A stretch of DNA of 64,000 nucleotides, from NCBI GenBank assembly GCA_041656295.1, contig JBBADV010000005.1, positions 98,834 to 162,833 on the forward strand. Direction: 5' to 3'. Position numbers and translations under genes: made by a program. The notes below the pieces were generated by a model. The model worked only from the letters and a program-made list of their open reading frames with translations, did no database searches and had not been told where the DNA came from. This document shows positions 3,297-60,180 of the stretch, piece by piece (the stretch's first letter is position 1; each line of letters opens with the position of its first letter). The stretch comes from Kiritimatiellales bacterium (lineage in GTDB: Bacteria; Verrucomicrobiota; Kiritimatiellia; Kiritimatiellales; Tichowtungiaceae).

Positions 3297-3442
3297 AGCC
3301 CAGACTTTCATGAGGTTTGGAGCCGGAAATGAAAGCACAGTTTGGAATCCTGTTAAAGTGCCTTTTGCACCGGAATAAAACTTGCGTTCAAGTCGAAGTG
3401 TATTAAAGTTGAACTGATTGCAACAACGAAGGAGGCAATCCC

Positions 3443-3733
3443 ATGGCAGTTCAAAAGAAAATAACAAAAAAATCCGCGTCTAAAACAGTAGCGAAATCAA
3501 AAGCCGACGCTAAAAAAGTGCCGGCGAAAAAAACAGTTACTAAAAAAAATATTGCAAAAAAAGCCCCGGCGAAAAAGACTGCCGCTAAAAGAACAGTATC
3601 GCAGGATCAGTTCTATACAATGATCTGCGAGGCGGCCTATTTTGCAGCCCAGAATGACGGCAATAAAAAAGGAGCCGTTGAGTATTGGCTTGAGGCTGAA
3701 TGCATTATTGGCAAGCGCTTTGATGTGCAATAA
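3443..3733 (+). CDS. Small basic protein: Lys/Ala-rich histone-H1-like N-terminus fused to a DUF2934-like C-terminus
   Basis: GGAGG Shine-Dalgarno 8 nt upstream of the ATG. The N-terminal 50 aa are KK/AKK repeats. The C-terminus (AAYFAAQNDG..EYWLEAE) resembles the DUF2934 signature. A strong terminator follows. Confidence 0.6.
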   Translation: MAVQKKITKKSASKTVAKSKADAKKVPAKKTVTKKNIAKKAPAKKTAAKRTVSQDQFYTMICEAAYFAAQNDGNKKGAVEYWLEAECIIGKRFDVQ

Positions 3734-3754
3734 CAGAACCGGAAAAATACGTCA

Positions 3755-3786
3755 CGCGCAGGATTGAACTCCTGCGCGTTTTTTTG
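3755..3786 (+). terminator. Rho-independent terminator
   Basis: Perfect 9-bp stem CGCGCAGGA/TCCTGCGCG with a 6-nt loop, followed by T8. Confidence 0.75.
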
Positions 3787-3813
3787 TTAGAAAGAATCGC
3801 ATCCAAACAGTCC

Positions 3814-3890
3814 GGGCGTTTAGCTCAGTTGGTTAGAGCGCCTGCTTCACACGCAGGAGGTCACAGATTCGAGTTCTGTAACGCCCACCA
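3814..3890 (+). tRNA. tRNA-Val (anticodon CAC), CCA encoded
   Basis: Cloverleaf read by hand: acceptor GGGCGTT/AACGCCC, anticodon stem CCTGC/GCAGG with loop TTCACAC, T-loop TTCGAGT, 3' ACCA. Confidence 0.9.
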
Positions 3891-4112
3891 TCCAGGACTC
3901 GCCGGAGTGCAACGATTAAAACCACTTTGATCTCCGGTACACGTCGGTAGCTCTGGCTGTCTTGGGAAAGATATGAATCATACACGACTGCTCCCCTGCT
4001 CTTTTTCGGCTGCATCCTAAACCAAGCGCGCCTGTTTGCCGCACCCGAAACAAAGAGATTGCCCCTGTTGTACGGGATCCGGCTGTTGTTTGCACAACAA
4101 CCGGTAAACGAC

Positions 4113-9909: not shown

Positions 9910-10054
9910 CTTCGCGTCTCTGCGTGCAGGGTTTTTCACACCCATCCATTTTCATTAAAATTTCGGCGGATAGGTCGGCCGCGCCTGCAAACAAATTGTA
10001 GCCGCGGGCGTTGACCGCGGTTCCGGTGCGGCAAATTAAACAGAAAATGCTCTA
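9910..10054 (+). repeat. Partial (right-half-like) copy of the modular foldback element
   Basis: Ends in AAATTAAACAGAAAATGCTCTA, which resembles the conserved right terminus TTAATTTAAAATGCTCTA. It contains a TTCGCGTCTCTGCGTGCAGGGTTTTT word block. Confidence 0.35.
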
Positions 10055-10268: not shown

Positions 10269-11885
10269 ATGAAGAGGGGCTGGTGGATTTCTTTGACGAT
10301 TATGGCGGTGGTGCTGAGTCTGCTGCTGAGCGCGGCAAATCTTTTTCTTGGCAATCTGAATCAGGACGAGGGCTGGTATCTGTATGCCGCACGATTGGTG
10401 AGTGAAGGCCGGGTGCTGTACCGCGATTTTATGTTCACACAGGGTCCGGCACTGCCGGCGGTGTACGGAATTTTCACACCGGTCATTCATCTGCTTGGCG
10501 TTGCCGGCGGACGTTTGATCACAGCGCTGTTCGGGCTTGCCGCCGCCGGCTGTGCCGCGTGGCTGGCAGCGCGTGCCGTTTCAACCCGCCGGCACGCGGC
10601 GGCGCTGTGTGCGTTTATACTCACCGGTGTGAATGTATATCAGAGTTATTTTTCGACAATTGTTAAAACGTATGCGCTCTGCGCGTTTTTTATTACCGCC
10701 GGTTTTGCGGTGCTGAGCTATGCGGCAGCGCGGCGCGGGATTGTGGCGGCATTTTTCTCCGGCATCCTGCTGGCACTGGCAGCGTGTACACGGCTCTCCG
10801 CCGGAATATTGCTGCCGGTCGCCGGAATCTGGCTGATTTTAAACCGCCGGAAAATCGCTGCAGGATCGTGGGCTGCGTTCGGCAGCGGCGGCGGACTGAT
10901 GCTGCTCGCCGGGCTGGGAATATTTTTTCTGCTCGCGCCGGAAAATACGCACTTTGCGCTGTTCGGTTATCACGCCGGCCGGTCGCCCGGCGGACTGATG
11001 CCGCTGCTTGCACTAAAGGCCGGATTCATTTCACGTTTCGTGCAGGCCTATTTTGTTTTTGCCGGCGGCGTCATGCTGACCTTCTTTTTTCAGAACCAGT
11101 CGCCGCGCCGGCGCGAGCTTGAAAAGCTCGGCGCAAATCAAATGCCGCGTGTAACGGATATGATCAAGCAGGCCTATCAGAAAGAAACTCCGTTCACGCA
11201 CAGTTTTATTTCGCTGCTCTGGATTTCCGGCGCGGCGGTTACATTGGTTCATTTCGCGGCGCCGTTCCCGTATGACGATTATCAGGTGATCATTTTTCCG
11301 CTGCTCGCTGCCGCGCTGGCCGCAACTCTGCTGCCGTTCTGCCCCGAAAAATATCTGCTGCGTACGCTGGCGCTGCTTCTGCTGGTGAATGCCGCCGCGG
11401 CATGTTCGTCGCCGGTAAATCAGGAGTGGCTGGTCAGCGGCCGCGATCGCATCTGGTGGAAGTTTAAAGAGACGCCGGATTTAATAACACTGCGGCGCGC
11501 CGGAAATCAACTCCGTGAAAAGCTCGCCGGGACTCAACTGCTGTTAACGCAGGACATCTATCTCGCGGTTGAAACCGGTGCAACGGTTCCGCATGGCATG
11601 GAAATGGGACCGTTCTGTTACTATCCGGAGCTGCCGCGCCGGCGCGCCGAAAAGCTGAACCTGCTCAACACTGAAATGCTGATAGAAATTCTGCTCGAAG
11701 CCGCCGCGCCGGTTGCTGCGTTCAGCGGTTACGGACTCTCCATTGCATCGCCGGAAATTGCCGAACTGCCGCCGGAAATCCGGCGCACACTGCAGGTCGC
11801 ACTGGAAGTGAATTACGACACGGTTGAAGAAATTGAAAATTTCGGACAGGCGCATACCACGCTCAAAATTTATGAGAGAAAATGA
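10269..11885 (+). CDS. ArnT/PMT-like polyprenyl-phosphate-sugar-dependent glycosyltransferase (GT39/GT83-like), polytopic membrane protein
   Basis: ORF trimmed to MKRGWWISL. Has the N-terminal loop motif NQDEGWYLYAAR...GRVLYRDF and more than 10 hydrophobic helices. Paired with a GT2 polyprenyl-phosphate sugar synthase-like gene downstream. Confidence 0.7.
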   Translation: MKRGWWISLTIMAVVLSLLLSAANLFLGNLNQDEGWYLYAARLVSEGRVLYRDFMFTQGPALPAVYGIFTPVIHLLGVAGGRLITALFGLAAAGCAAWLAARAVSTRRHAAALCAFILTGVNVYQSYFSTIVKTYALCAFFITAGFAVLSYAAARRGIVAAFFSGILLALAACTRLSAGILLPVAGIWLILNRRKIAAGSWAAFGSGGGLMLLAGLGIFFLLAPENTHFALFGYHAGRSPGGLMPLLALKAGFISRFVQAYFVFAGGVMLTFFFQNQSPRRRELEKLGANQMPRVTDMIKQAYQKETPFTHSFISLLWISGAAVTLVHFAAPFPYDDYQVIIFPLLAAALAATLLPFCPEKYLLRTLALLLLVNAAAACSSPVNQEWLVSGRDRIWWKFKETPDLITLRRAGNQLREKLAGTQLLLTQDIYLAVETGATVPHGMEMGPFCYYPELPRRRAEKLNLLNTEMLIEILLEAAAPVAAFSGYGLSIASPEIAELPPEIRRTLQVALEVNYDTVEEIENFGQAHTTLKIYERK

Positions 11886-12801: not shown

Positions 12802-13128
12802 TTACCAGCGTTCGCTGCGTTCACCGCGGTCACGTCCGCCGCCGCCGAAGCCGCGCCCTCCGCCACCGCTGCGGCGTTCGCCCTGCGGTTTTGGTTGCGA
12901 TTCATTTACGCGAATCGAACGGCCCATAAAATCAGCGCCGTTCAATGCATCGATTGCGGCCTTGCCTTCGCTCTGTTCCGGCATTTCAACAAAACCGAAT
13001 CCTTTGGAGCGTCCCGACATACGGTCGAGAATCACACGCGCCGAAGCGACCTTGCCATGCTGCTCAAACAGTTCCTGAAGATCAGGGTCTGTCGCGGCAT
13101 ACGGCAGATTTCCTACATAGATATCCAT
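12802..13128 (-). CDS. RRM-type RNA-binding protein with an RGG tail
   Basis: RNP2 (IYVGNL) and RNP1 (KGFGFVEM) motifs, a Gly/Arg-rich C-terminus and an AAGGAA RBS. Confidence 0.9.
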   Translation of the reverse strand: MDIYVGNLPYAATDPDLQELFEQHGKVASARVILDRMSGRSKGFGFVEMPEQSEGKAAIDALNGADFMGRSIRVNESQPKPQGERRSGGGGRGFGGGGRDRGERSERW

Positions 13129-13376
13129 CCGTCATTTCCTTCTTACTGTGTCATAATCTAAACAACCAATTCCAACCCACGACACCGGGTTTATGAACCG
13201 ATACAACGCCTTTTTCGGCGAACGCAACGGGGACACTGCCACACCGTATTAAAAAAAGAAACTGTTATTTATAGAAATAGACAAAGAAATAAACGGGAAA
13301 AATTCTGAAAACAGAAGCAGGATAAAGGGCTGTTTTAGCCGGCTCAAATAACTTGCAATGGAACAGATTACGCTTT

Positions 13377-13691
13377 TAGAGCGTATTCAGAAAAATTATA
13401 GCCACAAAAAACACAAAAAATAAAAATTGATCCGCAGATGACGCAGATAAGCGCAGATGTTTAAACCACGGGATACACAAAACACACGGAAGTTTTGCAG
13501 AAGAGGGATTAGCAGAGCGGCAGAGTAGTAGACGCGGCGCCCTCGCCGCGTTCCGTGTTCAGGGTTTTCTGTGTACAGTTGAGAGTTGAAAAATTCTCAG
13601 TGCGCTCTGCGGTTTATCAATCAGTTCGGTCCATAATTATTTGGTGATTTTTGCGCGTTTTTGCGGCTATACATGAATTTAAAATGCTCTA
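13377..13691 (+). repeat. Modular foldback (MITE-like) element, copy 1
   Basis: Termini TAGAGCGTATTCAGAAAAATTATAGCCACAAAAA and TTTTTGCGGCTATACATGAATTTAAAATGCTCTA form imperfect inverted repeats of about 45 nt. A central perfect palindrome ACGCGGCG-CCCT-CGCCGCGT sits at 13532-13551, about 8 nt right of the geometric centre. Confidence 0.85.
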
Positions 13692-16321: not shown

Positions 16322-16668
16322 TAGAGCGTATTCAGAAAAATTTAGCCGCAAAATAAACAAAGGTGTAATGCACCGCAGGCATCCTTACCTGCCTTGGGAA
16401 ATCCGCAGATGACGCAGATGAACGCAAATGTTAAAATCACGATTCGAAACGAAGTGAAGACTTGAAGAGCGGCTTTCTGAAAGAAAGCAGCGAAAGCGAC
16501 AAAGGCTCGCCAAAGGCGGGCGGTGAAAACGGCAAACACACCGAATACACGGATTTTTTTGCAAAAAGGCAATGAAGTGCTGCATGCGTGTTCATGCGTG
16601 GTTTATCAATCATTCGGCCCATAATTATTTTGCGATTTTTGCGGCTTTTTTTAATTTAAAATGCTCTA
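16322..16668 (+). repeat. Modular foldback element, copy 2
   Basis: Same termini as copy 1. The interior is mosaic: it shares the GCAGGCA..CCTGCCTTGGGAAATCCGC module with copy 3 but has a different core. Confidence 0.8.
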
Positions 16669-16741: not shown

Positions 16742-17457
16742 AGGGGCTGTAGTAGATAAGCTTGAATGCTAAGCTTGTCGAATGAAGATAACTCGTTGTA
16801 AGTTATTAAGAAAACAGCAGTTAAGACTGCTCGACTATTTTGTTCTGGAAGTGACAGCCCGATCGGCAGCGGATTTACTGGGAATACAGCCCAACAGTGC
16901 GGCCCTGTTTTACCGCAAACTGCGTGAGGTGATTGCGCATCACCTTGAGCAAAAAGAACATGAAGTGTTCGATGGAGCGGTTGAATTGGATGAGAGTTGT
17001 TTCGGTGGTGTCCGCAAGGGTAAGCGCGGTCGAGGAGCTGCTGGCAAGGTCGCTGTCTTTGGCATCTTAAAACGCGGTGGCAAGGTCTACACCAAGATCG
17101 TGAAGGACACCAGGACGGAAACGCTGATGCCATTGATCTCCAGGAAAACAGCGCCAGACAGCCTGGTGTATACCGATTGTTATCGAAGCTGCAATGCCTT
17201 GGACGTGAGTGATTTTTACCATGAAAGGATCAATCACTCGGCGCTATTTGCAAAGGGCAAGAACCGCATCAATGGCATTGAGAACTTTTGGAATCAGGCC
17301 AAGCGTGTGCTGAGAAAATACAATGGAATTCCGAAAGAGTCGTGCCCGCTATTCCTCAAGGAATGCGAGTTCAGATTCAATTGCGGAAGCCCTAAGCAAC
17401 AATTGAAAACACTTAAGGAGTGGGCTGATATTTAGTGCTTATCTACTACAGCCCCTA
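16742..17457 (+). mobile_element. IS1595-family insertion sequence (copy 1, distinct species)
   Basis: Perfect 20-bp terminal inverted repeats AGGGGCTGTAGTAGATAAGC (16742-16761 and 17437-17456). Flanked by an AATTTAA direct duplication (16736-16742 and 17457-17463). Confidence 0.85.
16782..17435 (+). CDS. IS1595-family (ISXO2-like DDE) transposase
   Basis: 217 aa with motifs ELDESCFGG..KGKRGRGAAGK..VFGILKRGGKVY, YTD and INGIENFW, characteristic of DDE_Tnp_IS1595. Confidence 0.85.
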   Translation: MKITRCKLLRKQQLRLLDYFVLEVTARSAADLLGIQPNSAALFYRKLREVIAHHLEQKEHEVFDGAVELDESCFGGVRKGKRGRGAAGKVAVFGILKRGGKVYTKIVKDTRTETLMPLISRKTAPDSLVYTDCYRSCNALDVSDFYHERINHSALFAKGKNRINGIENFWNQAKRVLRKYNGIPKESCPLFLKECEFRFNCGSPKQQLKTLKEWADI

Positions 17458-33865: not shown

Positions 33866-33944
33866 GGGTAGGGTGCGCAGTCCCTTGCGCGCCGGAATTT
33901 GAATGTTCTGTAATAGCGGTGCGCAAGGGACTGCGCGCCCTACC
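33866..33944. repeat. REP/BIME-like doublet (two self-palindromic GC-rich units in inverted orientation)
   Basis: GGGTAGGGTGCGCAGTCCCTTGCGCGCC (33866-33893) and GGTGCGCAAGGGACTGCGCGCCCTACC (33918-33944). Each unit contains a GCGCA..TGCGC stem. Confidence 0.8.
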
Positions 33945-33983: not shown

Positions 33984-34721
33984 GGTTCAAGACAAGTTAA
34001 CTGGGTTGACATAGCCTTAAGATGTTGTCTTGAAATGAGTAATAAATATATTTTTCATTCACGGATTTCGGAGCACGATTTCCGGCGTATTATCCGCTAC
34101 TTTTCGGTGAATATTGAAGCATCAAAGATTGCTATTCTTACCGGGCTGAGTCGTAACACAATCAACCGGATTAGTTCTGCGGTACGCCGGCGGATCGCTG
34201 AATGCTGTGAACTGGACAGTCCGTTTAAATGCGGTGAAGTTGAATTGGATGAAAGCTGTTTCGGTGCCCGGCGTGTCCGAGGAATTCGCGGTCGTGGCGT
34301 AAAAGGAAAAACCATCGTGTTTGGACTGATAAAACGAAGAGACCGAGTCTACACTCAGGTTGTTAAGAACTGCTCTGTAAAGAAGTTACTCCCGATTATA
34401 CAACGGAAAGTGGATACGGAATTGATCGTATATACCGATGGATTTAAAAGTTACGACGGACTGGTGAATTTCGGGTATCGGAAGCATTACAGGATTCATC
34501 ATAGAAACAATGAATTTACTGTGGGACGAAATCATATTAACGGTATTGAAAACTTCTGGAGTATCGCTAAGGTTCGGCTTTCAAAATTCAGAGGAATTCA
34601 CAAATCAACGTTTTATCTCCATCTGAAAGAGTGTGAATTCCGATTTAATCATCGTCACGAAAACCTCTATCAGATACTGTTAAAAATGTTCAGAAAACGA
34701 CCCATTAACTTGTCTTGAACC
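33984..34721 (+). mobile_element. IS1595-family insertion sequence (copy 2, intact)
   Basis: 17-bp perfect terminal inverted repeats GGTTCAAGACAAGTTAA. Flanking 8-mers TTAATTTT and TAAATTTT match at 7/8 positions. Confidence 0.85.
34035..34718 (+). CDS. IS1595-family transposase
   Basis: 227 aa with ELDESCFGARRVRGIRGRG.KGKTIVFGL, YTDGFKSYD and INGIENFWS motifs. Confidence 0.85.
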   Translation: MSNKYIFHSRISEHDFRRIIRYFSVNIEASKIAILTGLSRNTINRISSAVRRRIAECCELDSPFKCGEVELDESCFGARRVRGIRGRGVKGKTIVFGLIKRRDRVYTQVVKNCSVKKLLPIIQRKVDTELIVYTDGFKSYDGLVNFGYRKHYRIHHRNNEFTVGRNHINGIENFWSIAKVRLSKFRGIHKSTFYLHLKECEFRFNHRHENLYQILLKMFRKRPINLS

Positions 34722-34739
34722 TAAATTTTTTATCGAAAT

Positions 34740-35340
34740 CTGTCGCAGAACACCCCGAGGCTTGCCACGGGGATGAATGCGTCCGACAGAGGGGGATGTA
34801 AGGGGGAGAGCGCAACATCCCCCTTTCCCGACAAGCTCCTTGCGGGATTTTGGTCAGACGATAAACTGTTGTAATGACATTAAAATGAACGAGTCTATAA
34901 TACAACCTATCATCCGGTGCGGTGTCCGAAATATCGTAAAGATATTTTTCGGGAAGAGTGGCTGAGGGAACGTGCGGAACAGTTATTTCACGCGGCGGCA
35001 GAAGACGATGAAATTGAAATCATCGAGATAGAAGTGTCGCAGGATCATGCCCATTTGATGGTTAGTGTTGCTTCCAAACGTGGAATAGGAGAGGTTGTTC
35101 GAATATTCAAAAGTGTTGTCGCGAGAGAACTGTTCCGTGAGTTCCCGAGTTTAAAAAAACGACTTTGGAGCGGGGAGCTTTGGGAAGATGGATATTTTGC
35201 ACGGACGGTTGGAGACCGGATGACGAGTGAGGTGATTCAGAAATACATTCAGCACCACCGTGAGGAAAAACAAGGAGCTACGTAGCTTGGTCTAAAGCTG
35301 CGTTAAAGATGCCCCGGGGCTTGCCACGGGGAGGTTCACT
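34740..35340 (+). mobile_element. IS200-like element (tnpA only)
   Basis: Directly repeated subterminal imperfect hairpins CCCCGAGGCTTGCCACGGGG (34753-34772) and CCCCGGGGCTTGCCACGGGG (35312-35331). An additional 9-bp stem GGGGGATGT/ACATCCCCC lies upstream of tnpA. Confidence 0.7.
34917..35285 (+). CDS. tnpA: IS200/IS605-family Y1 (HUH) transposase TnpA with no canonical start codon in frame (probably defective)
   Basis: Has CPKYRK, an HUH motif (DHAHLMV), RLWSGELWEDGYFARTVG and a C-terminal Tyr (QKYIQHH). The in-frame upstream codons read *NERVYNTTYHPVRCPKYR, while the only ATG (34885) is in another frame. Confidence 0.7.
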   Translation: MRCPKYRKDIFREEWLRERAEQLFHAAAEDDEIEIIEIEVSQDHAHLMVSVASKRGIGEVVRIFKSVVARELFREFPSLKKRLWSGELWEDGYFARTVGDRMTSEVIQKYIQHHREEKQGAT

Positions 35341-35592: not shown

Positions 35593-35665
<73 letters not shown>

Positions 35666-46924: not shown

Positions 46925-47827
46925 ATGAAATACCGGCCAAAACATATTGCTGAATATATCGCAGTGCGGGCAGCGCTGGCGGTGATCAATATCTTGCCAT
47001 TGCGCGCGGCGCTGGCATTGGGCTGGCTGGCAAGCGTACTCTTTTTTTATGTTTTCCGGTTCCGTACCGCTAAAGCAGTGGCACGGCTGGAAGAGGTTTT
47101 CGGCGATCGTTTTTCGCCGCGTGAACGCCGGCGGATTGCGCGGCTCTCGTTCCGCAATCTCTGTTTTAACGCCGTTGAATCGGCGCGGTTTTATAAATTA
47201 ACACCCAAAAAATTAAAACGCATGCCGTTCTATCAAAGCATCGAAGACTTTCACCGGGAGCATAAAAACAGCGGCCCGCTCATTCTGGTTACGGCGCACA
47301 TGGGAAATTGGGATCTTGCCGGAGTCGGATGCAGACTGGCCGGTATGCCGATTTTTTCCATTGCGCGCCGGCAGAAGAATCCGCTGACGGATAAGCTGCT
47401 GAATAACATGCGCAATGCCACCGGCATGGAGGTGATTCTGAATGATTCGCGTGTGCTCCAGAATGTGGTACGCAAACTGAAAGCCGGCGGCGTGCTGGCG
47501 ATTCTGCCGGATGTCCGCTCACAAACCGAGGCATTGACAATTGATTTCCTCGGCGGCAAAGCCAACCTCGGCGCCGGTGCGGCGCTGTTTGCACAACTGG
47601 CCAACTGCCCGGTTTATACAGCGATTCTCATCCGTCATGGCTGGACAAGACATGAAGCCAAAGTATTCGATCCGATCACTCCCGATCCCGCGCTTGACCG
47701 CCATGCAGACCGGCAGCGCATTATGCAGACTGTAATGACCCATATTACCGAAGAGGTTTTTAAACACCCTGAGCAGTATTTCTGGTTTAACAAGCGCTGG
47801 GTAATGGATCCGTTTACGAAAAAATAA
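46925..47827 (+). CDS. Lipid A biosynthesis (LpxL/HtrB-like) lysophospholipid acyltransferase
   Basis: N-terminal TM helix and an H-x4-D-type motif region (TAHMGNWDL). Has the typical C-terminal PEQYFWFNKRW. Confidence 0.75.
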   Translation: MKYRPKHIAEYIAVRAALAVINILPLRAALALGWLASVLFFYVFRFRTAKAVARLEEVFGDRFSPRERRRIARLSFRNLCFNAVESARFYKLTPKKLKRMPFYQSIEDFHREHKNSGPLILVTAHMGNWDLAGVGCRLAGMPIFSIARRQKNPLTDKLLNNMRNATGMEVILNDSRVLQNVVRKLKAGGVLAILPDVRSQTEALTIDFLGGKANLGAGAALFAQLANCPVYTAILIRHGWTRHEAKVFDPITPDPALDRHADRQRIMQTVMTHITEEVFKHPEQYFWFNKRWVMDPFTKK

Positions 47828-48565
47828 GGTTCAAGACAAGTTAATGGGACGCTTTCTGAACATTTTTAACAGTATCTGATAGAGGTCTTCGTGATGATGA
47901 TTCAATCGGAATTCACACTCTTTCAGATGGAGATAAAACGTTGATTTGTGAATCCCTCTGAATTTTGAAAGCCGGACCTTAGCAAGACTCCAGAAGTTTT
48001 CAATACCGTTGATATGATTGCGTCCGGCAGCAAATTCATTCTCCCCATGATGAATCCTGTAATGCTTCCGGTAACCGAAATTTACCAGGCCATCGTAACT
48101 TTTAAATCCATCGGTATATACGATCGATTCTGTATCAACTTTCTGTTGTATAATAGGAAGTAACTCCTTTACAGAACAGTTTTTAACAACCTGAGTGCAG
48201 ACCCGGTCTTTTCGTTTGATCAATCCAAACACAATGGTTTTTCCTTTTGCGCCACGACCGCGAATTCCTCGTACACGCCGGGCACCGAAACAGCTTTCAT
48301 CCAATTCGAATTCACCGCATTTAAAGGGCTTTCCAGCTCACCGCATTCAGCGACCCGCTGGCGTACCGCAGAAATAATCCGGTTGATTATGTTGCGACTC
48401 AACCCGGTAAGAACGGCCATCTTGGATGCTTCAATATCCACCGAGAAGCAGCGGATAATCCGCCGGAAATCGTGCTCCGAAATCCGTGAATGGAAAATAT
48501 ATTTATTACTCATTTCAAGACAACATCTTAAGGGCTATATCAACCCTGTTAACCTGTCTTGAACC
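47828..48565 (-). mobile_element. IS1595-family insertion sequence (copy 3, same species as copy 2, defective)
   Basis: Terminal inverted repeats GGTTCAAGACAAGTTAA and TTAACCTGTCTTGAACC (1 mismatch). The left end starts 1 nt after the acyltransferase stop codon. Confidence 0.85.
47831..48513 (-). pseudogene. IS1595-family transposase, frameshifted
   Basis: Split into ORFs 48220..48513 and 47831..48304. Alignment by eye to copy 2 shows a 1-nt deletion in the AGTCCGTTTAAATG segment (here AGCCCTTTAAATG). Confidence 0.8.
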
Positions 48566-48672: not shown

Positions 48673-49037
48673 TAGAGCATTTTAAATTAATGTATAGCCG
48701 CAAAAATGCGCAAAAATCGCAAAATAATTATGGGCCGAATGATTGATAAACCGCAGAGCGCACTGAGAACTTTTCAACTCTCAACTGTAAACTGAAAACC
48801 CTGAACACGGAACGCGGCGAGGGCGCCGCGTCTACTATACTCTGCCTCTCTGCTAATCCCTAATGCCTGATGCTTGCTGCACAACTTCCGTGTGTGTTGT
48901 GTATCCCGTGGTTTAAATATCTGCGTTCATCTACGTTATCCGCGGATTTCCCAAGGCAGGCAAAGGTGCCTGCGATACATTACACTTTTGTGTGTTTTTG
49001 TGTTTTTTGTGGCTATAGTTTTTCTTAATACGCTCTA
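48673..49037 (-). repeat. Modular foldback element, copy 3 (reverse orientation)
   Basis: The reverse complement aligns with copy 1 over the termini and core, including ACGCGGCG-CCCT-CGCCGCGT. It carries the extra GCAGGCA-CCTT-TGCCTGC module shared with copy 2. Confidence 0.85.
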
Positions 49038-54327: not shown

Positions 54328-54398
54328 TTGCCCGACTAGGACTTGAACCTAGACGCCAAGAATCAAAATCTTGTGTGCTACCATTACACTATCGGGCA
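54328..54398 (-). tRNA. tRNA-Gln (anticodon UUG), CCA not encoded
   Basis: Acceptor TGCCCGA/TCGGGCA, anticodon stem CAAGA/TCTTG with loop TTTTGAT, and T-arm CTAGG-TTCAAGT-CCTAG. Confidence 0.85.
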
Positions 54399-59530: not shown

Positions 59531-60180
59531 TTACGGCAGAAACGGCGGTATTCCGGCTTTAACGGCTGCGCGACAGCGGCTGATTTTCACAGCGCTTTCC
59601 CGACACAATCCTGCATCTGAGGCGCATAGATAATTCAATCCTGTGCGTGATGCAAGAAATAGTTCAGAGTTTTTCGATGCGACGCAACTGCTTATAGACC
59701 GGAGCTTAATCAGATACTCCGCCAGATGCTGATTGATAAACTCGCTACCGTTGTCCGAGTCCGCCCAGGCAGCGGGAACGGCTGCTTTTCCCATATCCTT
59801 TATCTGCGCCATCACCGCCAGTGCAGTCTGGCTCCAAACAGCCCCGCCGCATCATTCACTCGCAGATCAAAGCTGTTTTTTGCACTCCTCTCCCTCAGGG
59901 TTCCGTGCCGCCGTTCATAATGCAGCAGCCAGAGCGCGGTCGCCTGCTTCAGGCGTCTTAACACAGCTGATCCGTGACCATCCACAGCGCCGTCAACGCC
60001 GTCAAGAACTCCGGCAAAGAATACACTGAGCTTTTTCTATATCGCCGGAGCGGTTCTGTTAAGCCGCTTGCTGGCATATTTACATTCATAGTTGCACACC
60101 GCACAGACTTCATCCATCAGGCGGGGCCGGTTTATAGCGTCGGCACTGAATGTTCAGATACTGCGCTTGAGTCGGTGTCT
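59531..60180 (-). pseudogene. Degenerate DDE (rve-type) transposase/integrase remnant
   Basis: ORF 59531..59815 contains WADSDNGSEFINQHLAEYL, an rve core DNGSEF motif. Upstream minus-strand frames are broken by stops. The extent is approximate. Confidence 0.4.

Follow-up and report, generated by a model that had tools for sequence, protein, structure and literature searches.

What are the roughly 350-bp repeats that recur between unrelated genes of an uncultured Kiritimatiellales bacterium, and how did they come to be there? The 64,000-nt stretch analysed here as a whole (hereafter the window; positions 98,834 to 162,833 of contig JBBADV010000005.1, assembly GCA_041656295.1) carries three full copies of one such non-coding element, named c1, c2 and c3. 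An earlier note on this DNA had described them as a mosaic foldback element resembling a miniature inverted-repeat transposable element (MITE). That likeness has held up, as further copies were found and no Rfam family was recognised. We conclude that the element is very probably a non-autonomous DNA transposon, a MITE, of uncultured Kiritimatiellales, which belong to the Planctomycetes–Verrucomicrobia–Chlamydiae (PVC) group. The family is new, although it represents an ordinary kind of selfish DNA and involves no new mechanism.

BLASTN and a profile search returned the three copies at exactly the coordinates and on the strands first proposed. Copy c1 (13377-13691, + strand, 315 bp including the flanking TA at both ends) and copy c3 (48673-49037, − strand, 365 bp) are of one kind, termed type I; copy c2 (16322-16668, + strand, 347 bp) is a chimera, with a type-I left part up to about nucleotide 120, a type-II interior and the right end common to all. 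An nhmmer profile built from all full-length copies recovered c3 with E = 1e-128, c1 with E = 6e-99 and the remaining window copy with E = 6e-58, with no other match in the window under E = 0.3. In BLASTN, c1 and c3 are 88% identical over 276 nt, with an additional 95% over the first 43 nt, and the similarity of c2 to the other two is confined to roughly 120 nt at its left end and 80 nt at its right end. All three copies are intergenic and lie in unrelated contexts. Copy c1 is found between the 3' end of a BspA-type leucine-rich repeat gene and the upstream region of a gene for an RNA recognition motif (RRM) RNA-binding protein, c2 adjoins a small divergent open reading frame (ORF) and c3 lies downstream of dnaB.

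Two further proposals about the window did not survive. A right-end fragment suggested at 9910-10054 has only the 11-mer AAAATGCTCTA in common with the element (BLAST E≈9), and the profile is silent there at E≤10; its Smith-Waterman score of 31, compared with 26.5±4.4 for dinucleotide shuffles and equalled by 50 of 300 of them, is that of a chance match. Similarly, the short words of the element were said to recur around cassette ORFs of the Bat operon, yet they are not enriched outside the copies and do not cluster at that operon. CACGGRA occurs 15 times outside the copies (16.4 expected), GCAGAG 29 times (30.7 expected) and CGCAGAT 17 times (7.8 expected), the last at scattered positions, while long element words have no occurrence outside the copies in the window.

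The anatomy of the element was defined from 13 full-length copies in the window and in a metagenome, the complete ones measuring 312-366 bp. The element is bounded by GAGCGTATT and AAAATGCTC, as a rule with a TA on each side, in agreement with the shared TAGAGC start and GCTCTA end noted earlier for all three window copies. The end follows a common outline, TAGAGC, about 14 variable nucleotides, TATAGCC(A/G)CAAAAA and then C(A/G)C(A/G)CAAAAA. Tandem units of 8-10 nt lie subterminally at both ends in numbers that vary by copy, as CACAAAAA on the left and, in reverse complement, as CGCAAAAATN on the right. In c1, the left terminal inverted repeat (TIR; 13377-13421, +) consists of TA and GAGCGTATTCAGAAAAATTATAGCCACAAAAAACACAAAAAA followed by the subterminal tandem CACAAAAAA x2, and the right-end module (13612-13691, +) reads GGTTTATCAATCA..CCATAATTATTT..GATTTTTGCGCGTTTTTGCGGCTATACATGAATTTAAAATGCTC plus TA, with CGCAAAAATN units of 10 nt each and the right TIR in its last ~45 nt. 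The two TIRs are imperfect, ~45-55 nt long and about 70% identical; the left 60 nt and the reverse-complemented right 60 nt align with a local score of 51, against 22.8±4.1 (maximum 42) in 1000 shuffles, which upholds the proposal that the ends are inverted repeats of each other. In c2 the terminal arms (16322-16353 and 16637-16668) are 32 nt long and 72% complementary.

What lies between these ends is exchangeable. All 13 full-length copies share the leftmost ~40 nt and the rightmost ~80 nt, and these ends enclose two unrelated interior types: type I in c1, c3 and six metagenome copies, and type II in three metagenome copies (L004, L009 and L010; L-numbers denote contigs or loci fetched from elsewhere). 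Between types, identity is 91.5% in the left 40 nt and 88.8% in the right 80 nt but ~50% in the interiors, as in random sequences. This conservation of the ends alone is the pattern that would be expected of sequences that need just their ends in cis. Chimeras join the two types, type-I left and type-II right in c2 and the reverse arrangement in L006. The mosaic structure described earlier was thereby recovered in full: c1 and c3 have the same core, the core of c2 differs, and a 37-nt hairpin module, GTGTAATG..GCAGGCA..TGCCTGCC, is present in c2 and c3 and absent from c1.

Short GC-rich hairpins follow one another along the interiors and, two exceptions aside, are found only inside the element. 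The perfect palindrome of the type-I core, ACGCGGCG-CCCT-CGCCGCGT, sits in c1 at 13532-13551, ~8 nt right of the centre, precisely as first reported, and all 22 of its occurrences (both strands counted) are inside elements. The reported tandem words are likewise present, with CGCAGAT repeated three times in tandem and further tandem units of 8-10 nt. An internal third copy of the terminus, AGAGCGCACTGAGAA, occurs ~85 nt from the right end (labelled I2 in copy 1 and I3 in copy 3); in c1 it is TTCTCAGTGCGCTCT at 13594-13608 (+), complementary to AGAGCGTATTCAGAA at the left end. Its position suggests stepwise assembly, in which a right module of ~85 bp may have been added onto an older, shorter element.

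The proposal that the whole element folds back on itself stood only in part. Every copy is predicted to fold with its two ends paired (z-scores of -2.6 to -5.7), and the left half is complementary to the right half at z≈5 when the whole element is considered. Once 60 nt are trimmed from each end this value drops to z≈0.3-0.5, the level of chance; the symmetry is therefore that of the termini plus local hairpins, and a full-length foldback was rejected. Protein coding is very unlikely because the indels between copies (1, 8, 10, 13, 34 and 37 nt) are not multiples of three, and the element contains only short, non-conserved ORFs, consistent with the absence of an ORF noted earlier.

Copies of the element also exist well beyond the window. 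A search of JGI metagenome contigs with the invariant 25-nt motif CCATAATTATTTNGNGATTTTTGCG returned 12 matches, and 11 stretches with element copies come from a single sample, Ga0265293, where they lie on six contigs of 7.6-301 kb. Extraction from this sample yielded nine complete copies, together with a degenerate right end, a right end interrupted by an insertion sequence (IS), a left-truncated copy of which the right ~160 nt remain and a copy cut by the edge of its locus. All are intergenic, mostly at the 3' ends of genes, and their loci are not syntenic with the window, nor are their flanks similar to it. In total, at least 15 copies, three in the window and 12 in the metagenome, with flanks that are all unrelated, are distributed over two apparently distinct host lineages; 11 of them are complete, 2 have a degraded or IS-interrupted right end and 2 are partial. 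The same 25-nt motif has no match in 185,579 species-representative genomes, plasmid and phage collections returned no match to the element, and the fetched loci of other Kiritimatiellales, including L021-L023, contain no copy. Six viral contigs matching a 19-mer of the left end lack extended similarity and were set aside as chance matches.

Assemblies of the host itself show how such a repeat behaves. The window sequence recurs without differences in contigs of ENA assembly ERZ27247346 and in the NCBI metagenome-assembled genome (MAG) GCA_964627265.1. The Logan contig L014 stops 31 nt into c1, because a multicopy repeat breaks short-read assembly, and other short-read contigs stop inside neighbouring insertion sequences.

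Three further observations in fetched contigs concern fragments of the element. On contig Ga0315284_10000004 (L005), an unrelated contig from another metagenome, the 25-nt right-module motif CCATAATTATTTTGAGATTTTTGCG occurs once, at 3885-3909, next to an inverted repeat of another kind (GTAAAAACCAGGGA..); with 23 bases specified, the match is unlikely to be due to chance. Contig L002 carries an intergenic tandem duplication of ~185 bp (3361-3950) with similar short words and one hairpin module of the element, and in addition a stand-alone type-II interior fragment without element ends (10425-10540). Interior modules may thus be shared between repeat families in the metagenome host.

TA is found at both ends in nine of eleven complete copies. 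Outside the dinucleotide, the left neighbour is a pyrimidine in 13 of 13 cases (11 of them T), and the right neighbour a purine in 12 of 12 (6 A, 6 G). The target therefore reads Y-TA-R, and the flanks Y|TA|element|TA|R. In one copy, L008a, the dinucleotide is GA on either side, within C|GA..GA|G (…gtc GA GAGCGT…ATGCTC GA gat…). A matching GA pair is what would be expected if the dinucleotide were duplicated host DNA, and improbable as the outcome of two independent mutations, which argues for a 2-bp target-site duplication (TSD). The flanks are consistent with the TA duplication first suggested from the window copies, although no base-exact empty site was obtained. Both IS630 and ISY100 duplicate TA, IS630 with a preference for TA within CTAG, and ISY100 inserts occasionally at non-TA dinucleotides in vitro (PMC2170065). 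The flanks of the copies agree with the TA duplication at a CTAG-like TA target that is characteristic of IS630/Tc1-mariner elements.

Comparison with relatives is informative at a coarser scale only, the sequences being too diverged for junctions to be aligned. The gene order cupin-MnmG-Der of locus L008 is kept in two relatives, in which the MnmG-Der spacer is 131-132 bp and free of the element, as opposed to 533 bp in L008, of which 353 bp are the element. In the window, ~190 nt upstream of the RRM gene are conserved in the nearest relative, L031, which has a different gene and no element at the place of c1. This conserved stretch (13129-13318, corresponding to L031 2130-2331) lies upstream of the RRM gene (12802-13128, −), with c1 just beyond it. 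With the proteins only about 76% related, it may be a conserved leader or regulatory region in its own right.

Bacterial MITEs have been described as non-coding and rich in stem-loops, with TIRs, 5'-TA-3' termini and a TSD (PMC2229807). The element matches this description, with its TSD a probable one, and fits the descriptive class; its small size, lack of coding capacity, TIRs and many dispersed copies are all those of a MITE. Transposition itself is something we infer from these features, and it may be pictured as follows. A DDE transposase encoded elsewhere in the genome would recognise both ends, with the subterminal 8-10-nt tandem units C[A/G]CAAAAA as its presumed binding sites, and would excise the element, whose ends enclose an exchangeable, hairpin-rich and non-coding interior. 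Re-insertion would then take place at an intergenic Y-TA-R site, with duplication of the central TA, and recombination between subfamilies would generate the mosaic interiors. The TA duplication and the YTAR-like target lead us to suggest, tentatively and with somewhat less than even confidence, that the mobilising transposase is IS630/Tc1-mariner-like. Because the partner transposon was not found, the class label 'IS630-derived' cannot be claimed.

Several points weigh against a MITE. No autonomous element or orphan end with the same termini was found in ~280 kb comprising the window and the fetched loci (215 kb), and the only transposases nearby are of the IS1595 family or IS200-like, with ends and target duplications that do not match those of the element. 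At 312-366 bp, it also exceeds the <200 bp typical of bacterial MITEs. The argument for a duplication rests on a single GA..GA copy, L008a, and in two complete copies the dinucleotides at the two ends disagree (TA/TG and TA/CA). Base-exact empty sites were not found, as exact-protein look-ups of the flanking genes returned the same strain only; such sites are out of reach because the nearest homologues of the flanking proteins are only 75-76% identical. Finally, the copies in the window are fairly diverged from one another (c1 and c3 are 88% identical without gaps), so that recent activity is not evident here.

Could the repeats be maintained by the host instead, as mosaics of repetitive extragenic palindromic (REP) sequences, that is bacterial interspersed mosaic elements (BIMEs) or REP doublets forming hairpins (REPINs), and spread by a Y1 transposase (REP-associated tyrosine transposase (RAYT) or IS200-like) or by recombination? 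Short GC-rich hairpins do make up the interior as a mosaic, the GTAGTAG before the core hairpin on inspection recalls the GTAG of REP sequences, stand-alone fragments of interior modules exist elsewhere (L002 3361-3577 and 10425-10540), and the window has a Y1_Tnp gene (34917-35285). The hairpin that flanks this gene, CCCCGRGGCTTGCCACGGGG, is however another one, with no occurrence in the element, and the parts of the element that are conserved are its ends, not its hairpins. The element is sharply delimited and has both long TIRs and a dinucleotide repeat at its flanks; to our knowledge, elements mobilised by Y1 enzymes, such as IS200/IS605 and REPINs, have neither. Hairpin units without TIRs or TSD, together with a flanking RAYT gene, are not what is found here, and we consider such an origin improbable. 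An origin of the repeats as genes or cis-regulatory elements of a multicopy structured non-coding RNA, with end pairing and hairpins as RNA structure, is if anything slightly more improbable still. The folds are more stable than those of shuffled sequences (the z-scores of -2.6 to -5.7 given above), several hairpins are perfectly conserved, and inspection of the rear of the left end reveals an outward-facing minus-strand hexamer that is a perfect TATAAT. Against an RNA gene speak two wholly unrelated interiors between the same ends. Neither type-I nor type-II copies matched Rfam, whether at gathering score or at E≤1, in line with the earlier note, which recognised no known RNA family. RNAalifold on eight type-I copies found compensatory double changes in none of 96 consensus pairs, although with copies only about 8% diverged the power to detect covariation is limited. 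In a Watson-Crick-only consensus structure, 14 GU-type changes, 8 AC-type changes and 11 transversions were counted, which shows no preservation of pairing specific to one strand. The copies are oriented inconsistently with respect to their neighbouring genes, and no promoter or terminator signal rises above chance. For the same reasons, signals at shuffle expectation and inconsistent orientation to genes, a cargo of promoters or terminators was rejected.

The insertion sequences next to the element raise a further alternative, in which it is functionally tied to the IS1595 family, as a landing pad or as an accessory non-coding module that travels with these ISs or directs them. Four IS1016-like members of the family, of 713-747 bp, were found. 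IS-A (16743-17455, +; 713 bp), with perfect 19-bp inverted repeats GGGGCTGTAGTAGATAAGC and an intact 217-aa transposase at 16782-17435, lies outside the element, 74 bp past the right end of c2; IS-B (47819-48565, −; 747 bp), with a frameshifted transposase, likewise lies outside, 107 bp past the right end of c3. IS-D (L011 11050-11784, −) interrupts the right end of an element, its insertion point being AATTTAA. All three, at or within ~110 bp beyond an element right end, are co-oriented with the element concerned, and their transposases are mutually 40-62% identical. That two of the three window ISs should be so placed has a chance of ~1e-3, a post hoc estimate that assumes ~9 kb of intergenic DNA. 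Yet 12 of 15 element copies have no IS nearby, and the intact IS-C (33984-34730, +), 91% identical to IS-B, has no element nearby; the element-IS gaps of 74 and 107 bp have no sequence in common. Furthermore, the IS ends (GGGGCTGTAGTAGATAAGC, GGTTCAAGACARGTTAA and GGGTCATGACTAGG) and their AT-rich duplications of 7-8 bp are unrelated to the ends (GAGCGTATT..) and TA of the element. Because of these differences the IS1595-family ISs are not its mobilisers, and neither mobilisation by nor derivation from the adjacent ISs was retained. The element right end does contain TTAATTTAAAA, which resembles the IS targets AAATTTAA and TAATTTA. A shared preference for AT-rich intergenic DNA would account for part of the association and is its simplest explanation, and we regard a functional tie as very improbable.

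If the element is a MITE, its distribution bears on exchange between hosts. The nearest homologues among 5.8 billion proteins are 76% identical for the GT2 glycosyltransferase of the window host and 75% for MnmG of the metagenome host, whose MnmG cluster consists of JGI sequences only. For DnaB, the nearest species representatives are MAGs assigned to Kiritimatiellales and 'Verrucomicrobiota', with 73-74% amino-acid identity, and named homologues of the flanking glycosyltransferase belong to Kiritimatiellales, Pontiellaceae and Tichowtungia (62-72%). The two hosts thus appear to be distinct lineages, a distinction drawn indirectly from such distances. Across them, c3 shares 93-94% identity with L003, L007 and L008a of the metagenome, as compared with 80% (gapped) with c1 of its own genome, and c1 and L008a have diagnostic variants in common. 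This similarity across hosts suggests either old subfamilies kept in both or horizontal spread of the family. In a separate observation, the IS-C transposase has homologues of 89-91% identity in other Kiritimatiellales MAGs, which together with the similarity of c3 hints at an exchange of mobile elements between lineages.

Two more ambitious proposals, that the right end of the element is a directional hot spot or landmark for IS1595-family ISs and that the family has moved horizontally between Kiritimatiellales lineages in recent times, seem to us unlikely. Were the first true, it would reveal an orientation-specific feature of target recognition by IS1595-family DDE enzymes; we know of no description of such recognition in this family. 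Were the second true, a mobile vector and a still-active partner would be implied.

Several other features of the window stand apart from the element. The Y1 gene mentioned above is an IS200-like transposase gene of 122 aa (Pfam Y1_Tnp; 34753-35331, ORF 34917-35285, +), with the hairpin CCCCG(A/G)GGCTTGCCACGGGG directly repeated on either side of it. It adjoins IS-C and a tRNA gene (35593-35665), and together they form a small hot spot of mobile elements. Just upstream of IS-C, at about 33866-33944, a long near-perfect inverted repeat, GGGTAGGGTGCGCAGTCCCTTGCGCGCC ... GGTGCGCAAGGGACTGCGCGCCCTACC, occurs as a single pair in the window; judged by its sequence, it is a putative REPIN-like structure or large hairpin. 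Ordinary features include the tRNA gene just named, those at 3814-3887 and 54328-54398, and an AdoCbl-II (cobalamin) riboswitch at 59538-59618 (−) upstream of a gene cluster.

Full-text literature searching found no paper that treats Kiritimatiellales and MITEs together, and the element would be the first MITE family described for this order. Its architecture is clear, with long ends that carry subterminal tandem units and with swappable interiors. In practice, annotation would do well to mask these ~350-bp sequences as a repeat family, since they break short-read MAG assemblies and are mistakable for regulatory RNAs, and the family could serve as a tracer of mobile-element exchange between uncultured PVC lineages.

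Among known systems, the element behaves most like IS630-derived MITEs such as RUP, and like Correia elements. RUP and other MITEs derived from IS630/Tc1-mariner transposons are likewise non-coding, with TIRs and a terminal TA read as a 2-bp duplication, and are present as dozens of intergenic copies presumed to be mobilised in trans; RUP also associates with IS elements (PMC2229807). The target of IS630 is TA within CTAG (PMC2170065), compared with the Y-TA-R context found here. RUP, however, is 107 bp long with 9-bp TIRs that match those of IS630-Spn1, whereas the element spans 312-366 bp, has imperfect TIRs of ~45-55 nt with subterminal units and has no partner IS that could be found; the two have no sequence similarity and reside in different host phyla.

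Correia elements (NEMIS) of Neisseria resemble the element in their intergenic location, TIRs (theirs of 24 bp) and TA duplication, the last a probable one here, in size variants made of modules (107 versus 155 bp) and, for Correia, in transcripts that form stem-loops. They differ in being shorter and in having integration host factor (IHF) sites and outward promoters with demonstrated regulatory effects, in contrast to the absence of promoter or terminator signal above chance in the element, where two unrelated interior types and their chimeras are found in addition. BIMEs, REP sequences and REPINs are also intergenic mosaics of short GC-rich palindromes, but they lack long TIRs and target duplications and are linked to RAYT Y1 enzymes, whereas the element is defined by its conserved ends. 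Stowaway-type MITEs, which are eukaryotic and mobilised by Tc1/mariner transposases, have in common with it the TA duplication (a probable one here), a length of a few hundred base pairs, the potential to fold back and the combination of the same ends with different interiors, although the host of the element is bacterial and the two have no sequence relationship.

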